43,620 bases of DNA from a virus. Its lineage: Duplodnaviria; Heunggongvirae; Uroviricota; Caudoviricetes. The DNA is taken from positions 1 to 43,620 of the IMG/VR virus record IMGVR_UViG_3300045988_007060, one strand, 5' to 3'. The notes under the pieces were generated by a model, which was not told the origin of the DNA, searched no databases, and saw only the letters and a program-made list of their open reading frames with translations. The translations under genes were made by a program, and so were the position numbers. This document shows, one piece after another, positions 7,884-13,935 of this stretch. The number at the start of each line of letters is the position of its first letter. Position 1 is the stretch's first letter.

Positions 7884-10800
7884 ATGGCTAATTTATTGTA
7901 TCTTGATACCGAAACATTCTCTGAAGCTGACCTAAAGAAAGTAGGGTCATACGCATACGCGGAACACGCAACAACTGAGATTATAATATGTACATACGCC
8001 GTTGATGATGGGCCTGTAGAAGTATGGGATTGCACTTCCGAACCAGTAATGCCAATAAGCCTACGCGTTGCGCTACGTAATGTTATGCGCGGGCGTATGA
8101 GAATTGTAGGCCATAACTTTTTAATGTTCGACAGGCTAGTTATGAAGCACTGCTGGGGTGTGGATATCAAACCGAGAAATACCATCGACACTATGATTCG
8201 AGCGTTTCGTCACGCGCTGCCTGGGTCACTTGATGCGCTGTGCGAAGTGCTGGGCGTATCGGCGGACAATGCAAAAGACAAACGCGGCAAGGCGCTGATT
8301 CAGCGTTTCTCTAAACCGACGCCGAAGAACTACAAAATCCGTCGATACACCGCAGAAACACACCCTGACGAGTGGGCGCTGTTCATCAAGTACGCCGTGA
8401 GCGACATCACCGCGATGCGTGAAGTCTTCCATAAACTGCCGCGTTGGGGTAACTCCGAGTTCGAGGACCGTGTACTGGAGCTGGACCAGTTAATCAATGA
8501 CCGCGGGTTTAAGGTTGACGTCGCACTGGCGGAAGCCGCGATTGAAGCCGTGGAGAAGCACAAGGCACAGTTACAGGAAGAAGCCCAACGAAAATACGGC
8601 GGCTCGCTTACTGGTAAAGACTTCCTTCCGATTCTGCGTGAACTCGCACCCGCGCACCGCATCCATAACGCACAGAAGTCGACACTGAATGACCTGCTGG
8701 CAGACGATGATTTACCCGACGATGCTCGCATGATTATAGAAATGCGCCTCGGGGCCGCGTCCACCGCATCAACGAAATATAACCCACTGCTGTTGGGCCG
8801 CTCTTCTGACGACCGACGCCGCGGTTGCTTGCAGTACGGCGGGGCAAAACGCACTCTGCGATGGGCGGGTAAAGGCTTCCAACCGCAGAACCTCGCGCGC
8901 GGGTACTATCACGATGATGAACTGGATAAAGGCATTTCAGCGTTACTTAAGGGCCGCGCGCACCGCCGTTTTGATGTCGCTAAATTAACGGCATCGACGG
9001 TGCGTAGCTGCATCATACCGGAAGCAGGACATAAGTTTGTTGTTGCCGATTATTCTAACGTTGAGGGCCGAGGGCTTGCGTGGCTTGCAGGCGAAGAAAC
9101 CGCGCTAGATACGTTCCGCGCCGGGCTGGATATTTATTGCGTAACCGCAGGTAAGATGTTTGGCATGGACCCAGACGACATTAAGAAAGAACGTAAAGAC
9201 TTGCGCCAGATTGGTAAAGCGTGCCTTCACCGTCATACCCAAGTTTTGACCGATGGCGGATTTAAGGATATTATGGCGGTTACATCAACAGATAAAGTAT
9301 GGAGCGGTGAAAAATGGGTGAATACAAAAGGCGCGCACCTTATGGGGTGGAAACCGGTAATAAATGTGGACGGGGTGCTAATGACCGAAGACCACAAAAT
9401 CTTGGCGCATTCCTGGAAGCAGGCAAAGCAACTCGCTTCAAACAGATATATGATGGGCCTCGCCCTGGAGAGAGGTATGGACGCTTGGTTATCCTGCGCG
9501 AGTTACCAAAACGACAAGGCCAAAGACAACTACTCGTCCAATGTGATTGCGGGGGGATGCCGGGGCGGGTCTATTATGACAACGTCAGAGCGGGTAAAAC
9601 CACTCAATGCAACCGCTGCGCCCTTGAAGCAACAAAAAAATATCGTAAACAGTATTTCTGCTACGAAGACGCAATGCCGGATGATGCGCACAGAACGCGA
9701 TTACTCAACCGGCTGTCCGCGGCTATCACGCGAACAACAAGCCCCAGGGATAAGGGTTATAAAAACTATGGGGCAAGAGGCATCACGGTATTCGACCAGT
9801 GGAGGACTGATAAAAGGTCTTTTCTTAGATATGTTCAAACTCTGGAAAGCTGGGATGACCCGAACCTCGAAATGGATAGAATCGACACAGACGGTAACTA
9901 CGAACCTGGAAACATTCGGTTTGTCAGCCGTTCTGAAAACTGCCGAAACAGACGGCAAATACCCGAGCTTCAACGAAAGTATGATGCAGCCGTTGCCCGC
10001 ATTGCTGAACTTGAGCGGGAAATTAACCTACTGCGAGCCGGTGTACGACCTGATTGATGTGGAAGACGGCAACCGTTTTCTTATAGCCTCAGACTCTGGC
10101 TTTCTTGTGGCGCATAACTGCGAGCTTGGCCTCGGCTACGAGGGAGGCGTCGGAGCGTTCGTTACGTTCGCTAAAAACTTAGGTCTTGACCTTATTGAGA
10201 TGGCAAAAACAATGGACGGTACATTCCCGGGCCACATATGGGCCGCTACCGCACGCGGGTACGAGTGGGCACGCATCCAGGAAGCAAAGCGGCCACCGCA
10301 TCCAGGTGAAAAGGACGACAGACCATCGTATATTCTGGACAAGAAAGTGTGGCGCACATGTGACGCGATCAAGCGTATGTGGCGCGAGTCACACCCGGAA
10401 ACAGTAGCGTTCTGGCGGGACCTTAAAGACGGAATTTTAGCCGCTGTGCGCAATCCTGGTCGTGAATTTTGGGCGGGAGCACACTTGCGCAAGAATGGCG
10501 AGCGCGCTATCCGAATCTGGAGAACAGTAGAAACCGATTCATCAGGTAGGAAGGTTCCCGGTTGGTGGTTGTGTATGGAGTTGCCGTCAGGCCGTATCCT
10601 CTCGTATCCGGGGATCGGCGTTAGCGTGACAAAAGAAACAGACGAAGACGGACGGGTAAACACGAATGTGCGAATCAAGTACCAAGGTGAAAACCAGTTA
10701 ACCCGCCAATGGACTACCCTGTACACCCACGGCGGCAAAGCCTGTGAAAACATTGTTCAGGCGTTGTGCCGTGATTTACTAGCATATGCGATGATTAATG

Positions 10801-10979
10801 TTGAGGGTGGCGGGTATCCCATCGTGCTTTCGGTACACGATGAACTGGTGTGTGAAACTCCAGATACGCCTGATTACACGGTGGCTGAACTGGAAAAATT
10901 AATGTGTTCGCTGCCTGAGTGGGCTGAGGGGTTCCCGCTTGTAGCGGAAGGTGCGGAGATGAAACGTTATGCTAAGTAA
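7884..10979 (+). CDS. family-A DNA polymerase with 3'-5' exonuclease domain, interrupted by an intein
   Basis: Exo motif LYLDTETFS; motif A VVADYSNVEGRGLAWL; motif B split as RQIGKA / intein / CELGLGYEGG; motif C LSVHDELVCE. Confidence 0.9.
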   Translation: MANLLYLDTETFSEADLKKVGSYAYAEHATTEIIICTYAVDDGPVEVWDCTSEPVMPISLRVALRNVMRGRMRIVGHNFLMFDRLVMKHCWGVDIKPRNTIDTMIRAFRHALPGSLDALCEVLGVSADNAKDKRGKALIQRFSKPTPKNYKIRRYTAETHPDEWALFIKYAVSDITAMREVFHKLPRWGNSEFEDRVLELDQLINDRGFKVDVALAEAAIEAVEKHKAQLQEEAQRKYGGSLTGKDFLPILRELAPAHRIHNAQKSTLNDLLADDDLPDDARMIIEMRLGAASTASTKYNPLLLGRSSDDRRRGCLQYGGAKRTLRWAGKGFQPQNLARGYYHDDELDKGISALLKGRAHRRFDVAKLTASTVRSCIIPEAGHKFVVADYSNVEGRGLAWLAGEETALDTFRAGLDIYCVTAGKMFGMDPDDIKKERKDLRQIGKACLHRHTQVLTDGGFKDIMAVTSTDKVWSGEKWVNTKGAHLMGWKPVINVDGVLMTEDHKILAHSWKQAKQLASNRYMMGLALERGMDAWLSCASYQNDKAKDNYSSNVIAGGCRGGSIMTTSERVKPLNATAAPLKQQKNIVNSISATKTQCRMMRTERDYSTGCPRLSREQQAPGIRVIKTMGQEASRYSTSGGLIKGLFLDMFKLWKAGMTRTSKWIESTQTVTTNLETFGLSAVLKTAETDGKYPSFNESMMQPLPALLNLSGKLTYCEPVYDLIDVEDGNRFLIASDSGFLVAHNCELGLGYEGGVGAFVTFAKNLGLDLIEMAKTMDGTFPGHIWAATARGYEWARIQEAKRPPHPGEKDDRPSYILDKKVWRTCDAIKRMWRESHPETVAFWRDLKDGILAAVRNPGREFWAGAHLRKNGERAIRIWRTVETDSSGRKVPGWWLCMELPSGRILSYPGIGVSVTKETDEDGRVNTNVRIKYQGENQLTRQWTTLYTHGGKACENIVQALCRDLLAYAMINVEGGGYPIVLSVHDELVCETPDTPDYTVAELEKLMCSLPEWAEGFPLVAEGAEMKRYAK
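9222..10118 (+). mobile_element. intein in PolA motif B (299 codons in polymerase frame)
   Basis: Begins CLHRHTQVLTDGG, TxxH block GVLMTEDHKIL, ends VYDLIDVEDGNRFLIASDSGFLVAHN then Cys+1; central part in this frame looks like off-frame sequence. Confidence 0.8.
9314..10057 (+). CDS. HNH homing endonuclease encoded in the -1 frame inside the intein
   Basis: GERYGRLVIL, CDCG..CNRC, DRIDTDGNYEPGNIRFVSRSENCRN; GGAG 9 nt before ATG 9314; true start could be further downstream. Confidence 0.7.
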   Translation: MGEYKRRAPYGVETGNKCGRGANDRRPQNLGAFLEAGKATRFKQIYDGPRPGERYGRLVILRELPKRQGQRQLLVQCDCGGMPGRVYYDNVRAGKTTQCNRCALEATKKYRKQYFCYEDAMPDDAHRTRLLNRLSAAITRTTSPRDKGYKNYGARGITVFDQWRTDKRSFLRYVQTLESWDDPNLEMDRIDTDGNYEPGNIRFVSRSENCRNRRQIPELQRKYDAAVARIAELEREINLLRAGVRPD

Positions 10980-11100
10980 ACTGATTATCGTATTACTGGC
11001 GGGATTCGCCGCCGGTGTCTACTGTCACGAGGGTCAATACGGCATGATTGTCACCGTATTGGGTATGTTCATCGCAATTTATCTGTGGGTGCTGGAATGA
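10969..11100 (+). CDS. small membrane protein (43 aa)
   Basis: GGAG RBS; hydrophobic; first of three translationally coupled mini-ORFs. Confidence 0.35.
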   Translation: MLSKLIIVLLAGFAAGVYCHEGQYGMIVTVLGMFIAIYLWVLE

Positions 11101-11186
11101 AAATTTACGGGTTATACGAAGAAGACTGTCGAATCTGCCCGCGCTGCGGGATTGAGCATACAAAACGAGAGGGGTGCGTATTATGA
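11097..11186 (+). CDS. small Cys-rich protein (29 aa, zinc-ribbon-like)
   Basis: ATGA overlaps on both sides; DCRICPRCG...EGC. Confidence 0.3.
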   Translation: MKIYGLYEEDCRICPRCGIEHTKREGCVL

Positions 11187-11335
11187 CAATGTTTGTATTT
11201 TGGACGATAGTAACCATGCTCGCACTGTTACTCGGTGCGGGAATAGCTGCGATGTTCTGTTATGGCCTGTTCTTTAAGTTTGTCGGTGTTGCCGTTCTAG
11301 GCGGGGCGTTTATAACTTGGGTTCTGCGCTCATGA
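11183..11335 (+). CDS. small membrane protein (50 aa)
   Basis: ATGA overlaps; two hydrophobic segments. Confidence 0.35.
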   Translation: MTMFVFWTIVTMLALLLGAGIAAMFCYGLFFKFVGVAVLGGAFITWVLRS

Positions 11336-11616
11336 CCCCGGAGGGCAAGATTCAGAAATACGCAAAAGAACGATTCGAGGCCCTCGGTGGCCTCGTTCGT
11401 AAACTTTCCTACGAGGGGCGCTCCGGCGCTCCCGACCTGCTGGTAATTCTCCCCGGCGGCATCATCTGGTTCGTCGAGGTTAAGAAAGACGAAAACACGA
11501 AGCCAGACCCACACCAGTTACGCGAGCATGCGCGGATGTGTAAACGTGGTGCAAATGTTTTTGTCGTTGGCTCGTTCAAACAGGTTGACGACCTAATAGC
11601 GAACTATTATAGTTAA
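11332..11616 (+). CDS. VRR-NUC domain nuclease
   Basis: SGAPDLLVILPGGIIWFVEVKKD...GANVFVV resembles the VRR-NUC core. Confidence 0.7.
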   Translation: MTPEGKIQKYAKERFEALGGLVRKLSYEGRSGAPDLLVILPGGIIWFVEVKKDENTKPDPHQLREHARMCKRGANVFVVGSFKQVDDLIANYYS

Positions 11617-11646
11617 TCACACACCAACAATATAAGGAATTGAGAA

Positions 11647-11838
11647 ATGAAACACGAATATGACCGCAAACCAGCACGTGACATCGTACCGGGCGACATG
11701 ATTTTCAACGTTAAGACCCGTCGGCCTGTTGCCGTCGATACTGTGTTCGTCGAGTCGAACGGTAAACTGGTTATCGAAGATGTAACGGGTAACGTTACGG
11801 CGTTCGGGCGTAAAGAGCTTGTGCTGGTGCTGAAATGA
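11647..11838 (+). CDS. hypothetical protein
   Basis: AAGGAA RBS; stop overlaps next start. Confidence 0.5.
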   Translation: MKHEYDRKPARDIVPGDMIFNVKTRRPVAVDTVFVESNGKLVIEDVTGNVTAFGRKELVLVLK

Positions 11839-12518
11839 TTGTCTGGTCATTGTTTGACGGTTCGGGCATTATGGCCCAACCGTGGGCGGAAGCGGGCCAT
11901 ACTTGCTATTGTTTCAACTACGACGGCGCCGACCACGGAGACTACGCTCGATTGGGTGCAAAAGTTGAACATGAAAATATCCACTATATAAACGCGTGGA
12001 TTGATAATAAATTCGACTTCGACGTTGCGCCGGATATTATTTTCGCGTTCCCCCCATGCACAGATTTAGCCGTTAGCGGCGCGGCCCATTTCGAAACGAA
12101 GCGGAGAAGGAACCCAACGTTTCAGGTAGAGGCCGTGATTACATGCAAAGTGGCTGCGCGTCTGGCTAAAAAGTACAACGTACCGTATATGATTGAGAAC
12201 CCGGTTAGCGTTCTTTCGTCTTTATGGCGTAAGCCTGACTACGCGTTCAATCCGTACGAATACGGCGGCTATTTACCCGAAGACGACACGCATCCAATGT
12301 TCCCGGATGTTATCCCGGCGCGAGATGCATATGTTAAAAAGACGTGCCTGTGGGCCGGAAATGGGTTTGTTATGCCTAACGTTGCCGAGGTTGCCGTGGG
12401 CAGCGGAGATAACCCTGGTTGGGCTAAACTCGGCGGAAAGAGCGCCAGAACAAAAACAATCCGCAGCCTTACTCCGCGTGGGCTCGCAAAAGCAGTTTAC
12501 GAGGCTAATCATGTCTAA
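11835..12518 (+). CDS. DNA methyltransferase-like protein (C5-MTase-like motifs, short)
   Basis: LFDGSG (motif I-like), FPPCTDLAVSG (motif IV-like PC), MIENP (motif VI-like); only 227 aa, no obvious target-recognition domain. Confidence 0.45.
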   Translation: MIVWSLFDGSGIMAQPWAEAGHTCYCFNYDGADHGDYARLGAKVEHENIHYINAWIDNKFDFDVAPDIIFAFPPCTDLAVSGAAHFETKRRRNPTFQVEAVITCKVAARLAKKYNVPYMIENPVSVLSSLWRKPDYAFNPYEYGGYLPEDDTHPMFPDVIPARDAYVKKTCLWAGNGFVMPNVAEVAVGSGDNPGWAKLGGKSARTKTIRSLTPRGLAKAVYEANHV

Positions 12519-13935
12519 GTTTCAAAGGCGCGAGTACCAAAAGCTCATGACTTCGTTTATGTTGCGGCACAATCGCTGCAACATATGGGCAAGCATGGGT
12601 GCCGGGAAGACTGGCAGCGTACTGTGGGCATTAAACCGACTGTTCCGCAACGGCCAACTTAACGATGACGACCGCGTGTTAATACTAGCTCCGCTGCGCG
12701 TTGCGTCCGGCACATGGCCAGCAGAACAAGAGAAATGGCGATTCCCATGCCTGAGTGTCGTCGATGCCACGGGTTCGGAGAAGCGCCGCATCGCGGCGCT
12801 GGAGTCATACGCTAACGTGGTGTGCACGAACTATGAAGTTATCGAATGGCTGATTGACTACTACGGCAAAGACGACTGGCCTTTTACGGTTATCGTTGCC
12901 GATGAAAGCACGAAACTTAAATCATTCCGCAGCCGTTCCGGCGGAAGCAAGCGGGCAAAGGCGCTTAGCAAAGTGGCATTCGGTAAGGTTAAGCGTTTTA
13001 TCAACCTGACAGGTACGCCATCACCAAACGGCCTGAAGGACTTGTGGGGGCAGAACTGGTTTATTGACGCTGGCGAGCGACTGGGTTCTTCATACACCGC
13101 GTTCACCGACCGCTGGTTTAATTCGGTCCAGAAGGGTAAGTCCGCTATGGCGCGAGAGTATCATGCGCGCCCGGGGGCGGATAACGAAATTCACCAGAAG
13201 ATGAAGGACATCAGTCTCACGATTGACGCTGCCGAGTGGTTCGGGTGTGAAGCGCCTGTTATCGTGCCAGTGGAAATCGACCTGCCGAAGAAAGCACGTC
13301 AGGCGTACATCGATATGGAGGAGAAGTTATTCGCGGAACTGGAGAGCGGGGAGGTTGAAGCCGCTAACGCTGCGGCGAAGACGTCGAAGTGTTTGCAGAT
13401 TGCCTCCGGTGCCGTATATGTGTCAGGGCCAGACGGCGAAGCAACCAAAGACTGGGAGAAAGTGCACGATACGAAACTTGACGCGCTTGAGTCAATTGTC
13501 GAGGAGTTACAGGGCGCGCCGCTGCTTGTGGCTTATCAGTTCAAGCACGAACTGGAACGCATCCTGAAACGTTTCCCGCAGGCACAGGCGTTTGCAAAAG
13601 GCGCTAAGGGTAATAAGCAGATGGAAGCGTGGAACCGTGGTGAAATCGAAATACTATGCGTCCACCCTGCGTCAGCCGGTCATGGTTTAAATTTACAGGA
13701 CGGCGGGCATCATCTGGCGTTCATAAGTCAGGGATGGAACCTTGAGCACTATTTGCAGGTCGTTGAGCGTATAGGTCCAGTCCGTCAGAAACAGGCAGGA
13801 CACGAGCGCCCGGTGTTCCTCTACCACATCGTCGCTAAAGACACGCTGGACGAGGTTGTTGCCGCGCGTACGGACGAGAAAAAATCGGTACAGGAAGAGT
13901 TGCTTAATTACATGAAGAGACGAGGTAAGAAATGA
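12511..13935 (+). CDS. SNF2/DEAD-like superfamily 2 helicase
   Basis: MGAGKTG Walker A, ADESTKLK DExx box, helicase-C region HPASAGHGLNLQ; start chosen at ATG 12511 (MSKFQRREYQ). Confidence 0.85.
   Translation: MSKFQRREYQKLMTSFMLRHNRCNIWASMGAGKTGSVLWALNRLFRNGQLNDDDRVLILAPLRVASGTWPAEQEKWRFPCLSVVDATGSEKRRIAALESYANVVCTNYEVIEWLIDYYGKDDWPFTVIVADESTKLKSFRSRSGGSKRAKALSKVAFGKVKRFINLTGTPSPNGLKDLWGQNWFIDAGERLGSSYTAFTDRWFNSVQKGKSAMAREYHARPGADNEIHQKMKDISLTIDAAEWFGCEAPVIVPVEIDLPKKARQAYIDMEEKLFAELESGEVEAANAAAKTSKCLQIASGAVYVSGPDGEATKDWEKVHDTKLDALESIVEELQGAPLLVAYQFKHELERILKRFPQAQAFAKGAKGNKQMEAWNRGEIEILCVHPASAGHGLNLQDGGHHLAFISQGWNLEHYLQVVERIGPVRQKQAGHERPVFLYHIVAKDTLDEVVAARTDEKKSVQEELLNYMKRRGKK

Follow-up and report, generated by a model that had tools for sequence, protein, structure and literature searches.

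How can a protein of 227 amino acids (aa), with motifs of cytosine methyltransferases but no obvious domain for reading a DNA sequence, modify DNA, if it does so at all? This question is raised by an open reading frame (ORF) of the tailed-phage record IMGVR_UViG_3300045988_007060 of IMG/VR, analyzed over its full 43,620 nt (hereafter, the window). A sequence-only reading of the window had singled out this ORF for its resemblance to motifs I, IV, and VI of C5-cytosine methyltransferases (MTases) and had hesitated between a minimal or divergent DNA-modification enzyme, possibly with an anti-restriction role, and a noncatalytic relative. The ORF is real and opens with an ATG on the plus strand (Table 1). 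It very probably encodes an active, unusually small, S-adenosylmethionine (SAM)-dependent DNA cytosine-C5 MTase of the phage Dcm-like family. Three computed results carry this assignment: the fold, the retention of catalytic residues, and homology with the enzyme of the phages K42 and KarlJaspers. The MTase as such is already known, being annotated in hundreds of phage genomes, assigned to a PHROG of its own, and characterized in one member.

The profile and fold searches that the sequence-only reading had proposed as a check both pointed to a DNA MTase. The window MTase matches PHROG 757 ("DNA methyltransferase") across residues 1 to 226 with an E value of 4.6e-86. A phmmer search of PDB sequences returned no match, and the family profile matched DNMT3B weakly (E value of 0.38), over motifs I to IV. 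The AlphaFold2 model, built on 32 homologues, has a seven-stranded core (predicted local distance difference test, pLDDT, 89.9; predicted template modeling score, pTM, 0.88), and the top 50 Foldseek matches of this model in PDB are all C5-MTases, either DNMT3A/B/C catalytic-domain entries or M.HaeIII (best E value, 1.7e-6). The modeled fold is that of a class I C5-MTase. DNMT3A and DNMT3B catalytic domains are the best structural matches, at just 12 to 18% identity to the window MTase. Unlike the latter, they comprise ∼280 aa, assemble into dimers or tetramers with regulatory domains, and carry RxR in motif VIII; the resemblance is one of architecture, not of membership in the DNMT3 family. 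Other short phage "DNA-cytosine methylases" of ∼225 aa ranked first when viral structures were searched.

The model also agrees with the earlier remark that no target recognition domain (TRD) is apparent. The last core strand spans residues 170 to 175 and is followed by ∼50 residues alone; ∼30 of these (residues 176 to 205), partly modeled with low confidence, lie between that strand and the C-terminal helices, with no distinct TRD between motifs VIII and IX. This compactness recurs in the relatives. A word-indexed search of 90% clusters recovered 6933 of them, nearly all 225 to 260 aa long, and an exhaustive search of 50%-identity clusters yielded 2047 representatives at E values of ≤1e-3, with 914 at ≤1e-10 and 210 at ≤1e-30. 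The median length is 237 aa among the best 150 of the 2047 representatives. As judged from these homologues, a small size is stably kept throughout the family and does not mark a fragment.

The resemblance to motifs I, IV, and VI was borne out, as LFDGSG, FPPC, and ENP are all present and invariant in the 32 homologues. HMMER alignments place the cofactor loop L6-F-D-G-S-G11 on motif I of both PF00145 and DNMT3B. Conservation was further assessed in a distant set of 117 full-length representatives, 32 to 59% identical to the window MTase. In this wider family, the motif I loop retains its (S/T)-G portion alone, whereas P73, C75, E121, N122, P123, D164, Y166, K168, T170, W173, R210, P214, and G216 are each conserved in at least 90% of the sequences. 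The C-terminal block IRSLTPRG is probably motif X-like, presumably standing in place of the canonical GN. The degree of motif conservation across the 32 homologues and the 117 representatives far exceeds chance, and its pattern reads as that of an enzyme selected for catalysis.

The family member that has been studied experimentally comes from K42, a KarlJaspers-like Drexlerviridae phage (95% identical) that is subject to defense by retron Ec86. In all four K42 escapers from this retron, a 711-bp dcm gene was missing or damaged; its product was identified as the trigger of the defense, with expression being toxic only when the retron is present (bioRxiv 10.1101/2023.08.16.553469; journal version, Wang et al., Cell Rep 2024;43:114857). 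Mass spectrometry coupled to liquid chromatography (LC-MS) revealed high 5-methylcytosine (5mC) on the multicopy single-stranded DNA (msDNA) of the retron in cells expressing K42 Dcm, whereas the quadruple mutant C82A/E128A/K175A/K176A was inert and did not raise 5mC on msDNA; residues K175/K176 had been assigned to substrate binding by superposition on DNMT3A (bioRxiv 10.1101/2023.08.16.553469). The KarlJaspers counterpart, bas06_0055 (Bas06, MZ501090; 711 bp, 236 aa), is annotated as "Dcm-like C5 cytosine methyltransferase" and is 60% identical to the window MTase over the full length (E value of 5e-105). Residues C82, E128, K175, and K176 of K42 Dcm align with C75, E121, K168, and K169 of the window MTase, so that all four are conserved. 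A 236-aa Sashavirus orthologue in our set (P0082) has the same residue numbering as K42 Dcm. The K42/KarlJaspers and window proteins share family, length class, the FPPC, ENP, KKT, and IRSLTPRG motifs, and one allele ("NPGW") of the variable cassette described below. They differ in a 6-residue insertion that KarlJaspers Dcm carries after motif III, in their origin (Drexlerviridae for KarlJaspers Dcm, Guernseyvirinae for the window MTase), and in gene neighborhood. The suggestion of a minimal or divergent DNA-modification enzyme is thus supported by the C5-MTase fold, the family-wide catalytic residues, and a 60%-identical homologue that produces 5mC.

The same data bear on the nature of the transferred group. 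C5-MTase chemistry could in principle deliver something other than methyl, such as carboxymethyl from carboxy-SAM (Cx-SAM), leading to hypermodified cytosine. The example is CmoX (PDB 8yf3), a phage DNA cytosine C5-carboxymethyltransferase of 333 aa that is characterized by SPPC and a defining Arg350 and is encoded beside CmoA and CmoY. We consider such an activity highly improbable for the window MTase. The product that LC-MS detected with the K42 homologue was 5mC itself, motif IV of the window MTase is FPPC rather than the CmoX-defining SPPC, and no CmoA or CmoY-type ligase occurs among the annotated neighbors of the MTase gene in relatives. DNMT3 enzymes, too, have "RS" in motif X, and they use SAM.

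Several observations weigh against an active enzyme with a Dcm-type function, some on the protein itself and others, taken up below, on its target. The Pfam model PF00145 scored 18.6 bits against a gathering cutoff of 22 and covered residues 3 to 102 alone (motifs I to IV), and no NCBIfam model matched the window MTase. Canonical motifs VIII, (Q/R)xRxR, and X, GN(S/A)V, are absent, and neither could be aligned by sequence to any solved enzyme; hhalign comparison of the family profile with an approximate M.HhaI sequence aligned motif IV alone (probability of 0.8%), and the C-terminal 64 residues gave a chance match only in PDB. Finally, the acidic position of motif II at the end of strand 2, presumably the ribose-binding acid, is Asp in 105 of the 117 distant relatives and Asn28 in the window MTase (nt 11916..11918). 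Along with the very short length and the missing TRD, the subthreshold Pfam score, the noncanonical motifs VIII and X, and the Asn at motif II would suit a catalytically dead MTase-like protein that acts by binding DNA or SAM, as a decoy, a regulator, or a SAM sponge. We find this barely credible. Thousands of sequences show little or no variation in the catalytic Cys, the ENP Glu, and the cofactor loop, and both the effect of the K42 homologue and its 5mC are gone in the quadruple mutant of active-site and DNA-contact residues. Motifs VIII and X are better described as variants than as losses, an equivalence for which we draw on the superposition of the K42 authors and on inference. Asn28 is invariant in the subfamily of the window MTase, the active K42/KarlJaspers enzyme included, and an invariant Asp lies two residues on (D30). 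Since the 60%-identical K42 homologue is active and the catalytic residues are kept, the "noncatalytic relative" of the sequence-only reading can be set aside.

The doubts about the target concern both its sequence and its nature. The CCWGG specificity of K42 Dcm was assumed from that of E. coli Dcm and probed solely by mutation of the msDNA site; replacing CCTGG in the msDNA stem by AATGG, ACTGG, or CATGG abolished defense in each case, in the host MG1655, where msDNA had low 5mC without the phage enzyme (bioRxiv 10.1101/2023.08.16.553469). These mutations fit CCWGG and equally a shorter CC-containing site. MG1655 is itself dcm+, yet its msDNA stayed low in 5mC. The window contains 81 CCWGG sites where 118 would be expected (ratio, 0.68), and CCWGG ranks among the two most depleted 5-bp palindromes, a mild depletion that full self-protection would not predict; CTWGG, the product of 5mC deamination, is not in excess in the window. 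In addition, the BASEL study reported that resistance to restriction was not related in any simple way to these methyltransferase genes. On balance, CCWGG as the site of the window MTase is a serious candidate that we place slightly short of an even chance. Provided that CCWGG was rightly assumed for K42 Dcm, this target might be common to E. coli Dcm and the window MTase. The E. coli Dcm/M.EcoRII-type enzymes (∼470 aa) and the classical M.HhaI and M.HaeIII have the same chemistry as the window MTase and the same core motifs (I, IV, and VI). The window MTase is about half the size, lacks the ∼100-aa TRD of these enzymes, and has no detectable full-length sequence similarity to them.

An active C5-MTase might also have a substrate other than double-stranded phage DNA, namely host DNA, single-stranded replication or recombination intermediates, or RNA in the manner of DNMT2, and would then serve takeover or regulation instead of protection. 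Cotranscription with genes for replication and recombination (VRR-NUC, SNF2 helicase, PolA), the lack of a clear correlation with restriction resistance in BASEL, and the action of the K42 homologue on an msDNA hairpin are compatible with this idea. Against it, the best structural matches are DNA enzymes, the msDNA stem is itself double-stranded DNA, and phages that methylate their own DNA usually do so with an orphan MTase encoded in the replication module. We judge another substrate to be very unlikely and retain a DNA cytosine-C5 MTase acting on phage DNA.

Site statistics of the window also covered other palindromes. GATC is the most depleted palindrome by far; 143.5 sites would be expected, and 8 are present (ratio, 0.06; z, -11), located at positions 10367, 10613, 18241, 25990, 29619, 35997, 41988, and 42693. 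Many 6-bp palindromes are nearly absent; AAGCTT, CAGCTG, CTGCAG, GGTACC, and GCCGGC each have a single site, and GGGCCC has none. With a cytosine MTase as the only one that it carries, the phage seems to deal with adenine-type and 6-bp targets by avoiding the sites.

Where a TRD might be expected by position, the family shows a variable cassette (residues 155 to 198) that occurs as two covarying alleles among the 120 closest homologues. The "NPGW" allele, PD(V/I)IPARDAYx-KKT...NPGWAK, is that of the window, phiWAO78-1, and KarlJaspers, and the alternative reads PE(Y)IKPRDAYP-KKT...GYSxQHxK. Three homologues in our set (P0035-37) and the orthologue of the Salmonella phage CTH7 (Jerseyvirus; compared at L005:1501-2181) are 94 to 96% identical to the window MTase over residues 1 to 154 and 86 to 97% over residues 199 to 227, but 57 to 59% in the cassette, which includes the least confident part of the AlphaFold2 model. 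Such a mosaic suggests that a putative module for specificity has been exchanged by recombination. The two-allele cassette is a modest new observation. A bolder proposal would be that this is the smallest natural architecture of a DNA C5-MTase, with a non-Dcm specificity set by a swappable cassette of ∼44 residues whose alleles recombine between otherwise 95%-identical genes; we regard this as unlikely. Should the cassette set specificity, phages that are close relatives would mark distinct and perhaps very short sites; the restriction systems that they escape would not be the same, nor would the methylation sensors that they trip, such as retron Ec86 and type IV enzymes.

We infer that the window MTase is active, and by analogy with the C5-MTase family we propose the following mechanism; site specificity and benefit to the phage are likewise deduced. 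Together with the end of strand 2 (N28/D30), the F7-D-G-S-G11 loop would hold SAM. The target cytosine would be flipped out of the helix for attack on C6 by Cys75 of FPPC, with Glu121 of ENP activating the ring and Lys168/Lys169 replacing the arginines of a typical motif VIII, and SAM would donate its methyl group to C5. Because the window MTase has no separate TRD, recognition would have to come from short loops, probably the catalytic loop, a family-specific insert (residues 139 to 167), and the variable cassette, in a DNMT3A/B-like fashion. The gene lies in the replication module and is probably expressed early enough for its product to methylate replicating phage DNA. By analogy with the K42 homologue, phage DNA, and host DNA within reach, would gain 5mC, probably at CCWGG or at a shorter CC-containing site. 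Such marks can blunt restriction at methylated sites, and the window MTase may in this way have the anti-restriction role that had been proposed for it, yet they would expose the phage to methylation-sensing defenses such as retron Ec86.

On this account, a phage gene that is routinely annotated as "Dcm" is a genuine, probably active minimal C5-MTase and is linked to the sole family member with experimental data. The phage is predicted to carry 5mC, to be partly protected at methylated sites, and to be vulnerable to retron Ec86 (Eco1), perhaps also to nucleases that depend on methylation. These predictions bear on the choice of hosts and phages for therapy. For enzymology, the interest lies in a TRD-less C5-MTase of ∼230 aa with a putative specificity cassette apparently exchanged between phages.

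The genomic context of the MTase gene matches that of related phages. Megablast of positions 11000-13000 returned 453 phage records, the top one being Escherichia phage phiWAO78-1 (Guernseyvirinae, Kagunavirus) at 93% identity; by nucleotide similarity, the window is a Kagunavirus-type phage. The phiWAO78-1 orthologue, gp40, is annotated as "DNA cytosine methyltransferase," and the gene order of this phage (PolA, small ORFs, VRR-NUC, 63-aa ORF, MTase, helicase) is that of the window. Genes labeled "DNA cytosine methyltransferase" or "Dcm" occupy the same locus in phiWAO78-1, hz69, SZH-1, Jersey, and FSL SP-101; these Guernseyvirinae members of PHROG 757 are orthologues of the window MTase with 88 to 98% protein identity. 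Apart from the alternative "GYSxQH" cassette carried by some Guernseyvirinae orthologues, e.g., that of Jerseyvirus CTH7, nothing substantial differs. Matches of the MTase protein in tblastn extended to 1528 phage records, including Escherichia, Klebsiella, Salmonella, Shigella, Campylobacter, and Vibrio phages. Literature searches on Jerseyvirus or Kagunavirus methyltransferases returned genome announcements only.

Table 1. Features of the MTase locus and of the encoded protein (positions in the window)
Feature	Position	Strand	Remarks
VRR-NUC-type nuclease gene	11317..11616	+	Pfam VRR_NUC, 17.6 bits, under cutoff
Conserved 63-aa ORF directly 5' of the MTase gene	11647..11838	+	phrog_4879, E value 4.2e-46, function unknown
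Short Dcm-like DNA cytosine-C5 MTase gene, 227 aa (probable)	11835..12518	+	ORF with ATG start
Motif I-like cofactor loop, S5-L-F-D-G-S-G11	11847..11867	+	G9, S10, and G11 invariant in 32 homologues
Motif IV, F72-P-P-C75, with the catalytic cysteine	12048..12059	+	Invariant in 32 homologues; C75 in 110/117 distant representatives
Motif VI, E121-N-P123	12195..12203	+	Invariant in 32 homologues; E121 in 114/117 distant representatives
Variable cassette, "NPGW" allele, residues 155-198, TRD-equivalent position	12297..12428	+	Two covarying alleles
K168-K169-T170, motif VIII equivalent, Lys replacing canonical RxR	12336..12344	+	K168 in 108/117 and T170 in 106/117 distant representatives
Conserved C-terminal block, I209-R-S-L-T-P-R-G216	12459..12482	+	Invariant in 32 homologues; R210, P214, and G216 in at least 90% of distant representatives
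SNF2-related helicase gene	12511..13935	+	Pfam SNF2-rel_dom, 45.4 bits, E value 7.4e-12; ATG at 12511

The sequence-only reading had placed the MTase gene between those of a VRR-NUC protein and an SNF2 helicase. The order is correct, but the gene does not abut VRR-NUC, from which it is separated by the 63-aa ORF. In relatives, the first of these flanking genes is annotated as VRR-NUC or Holliday junction resolvase and the last as DNA helicase. The stop codon of the 63-aa ORF and the start codon of the MTase gene share an ATGA overlap, and the MTase stop and the helicase ATG overlap by 8 nt; the three genes are therefore translationally coupled. The 63-aa ORF, also present at the same location in phiWAO78-1 and CTH7, may encode a protein that assists or regulates the MTase, or one unrelated to it. 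In two proteins of uncultured Caudovirales phages, BFVD A0A6J5SE15 (1397 aa) and A0A6J5NPY6 (1126 aa), the short Dcm-like fold is one domain of helicase/UvrB-like polypeptides. These MTase-helicase fusions of 1100 to 1400 aa, few in number, echo the adjacency of the MTase and helicase genes in the window.

Upstream, the PolA gene (family A DNA polymerase; 7884..10979) encodes 1031 aa, versus 726 aa in phiWAO78-1. It contains an in-frame insertion of 299 aa (9222..10118) that starts with "CLHRHTQ," ends with "VAHN/C," and matches phrog_93 ("endonuclease") with an E value of 3e-196. Pfam gave no intein or HNH match at E values of ≤0.01. Within it, an out-of-frame ORF of 247 aa (9314..10057, plus strand) matches HNH endonucleases (phrog_374; E value, 9.5e-47), and the two frames are both open for ∼740 nt. 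By its sequence, the 299-aa insertion looks like an intein.
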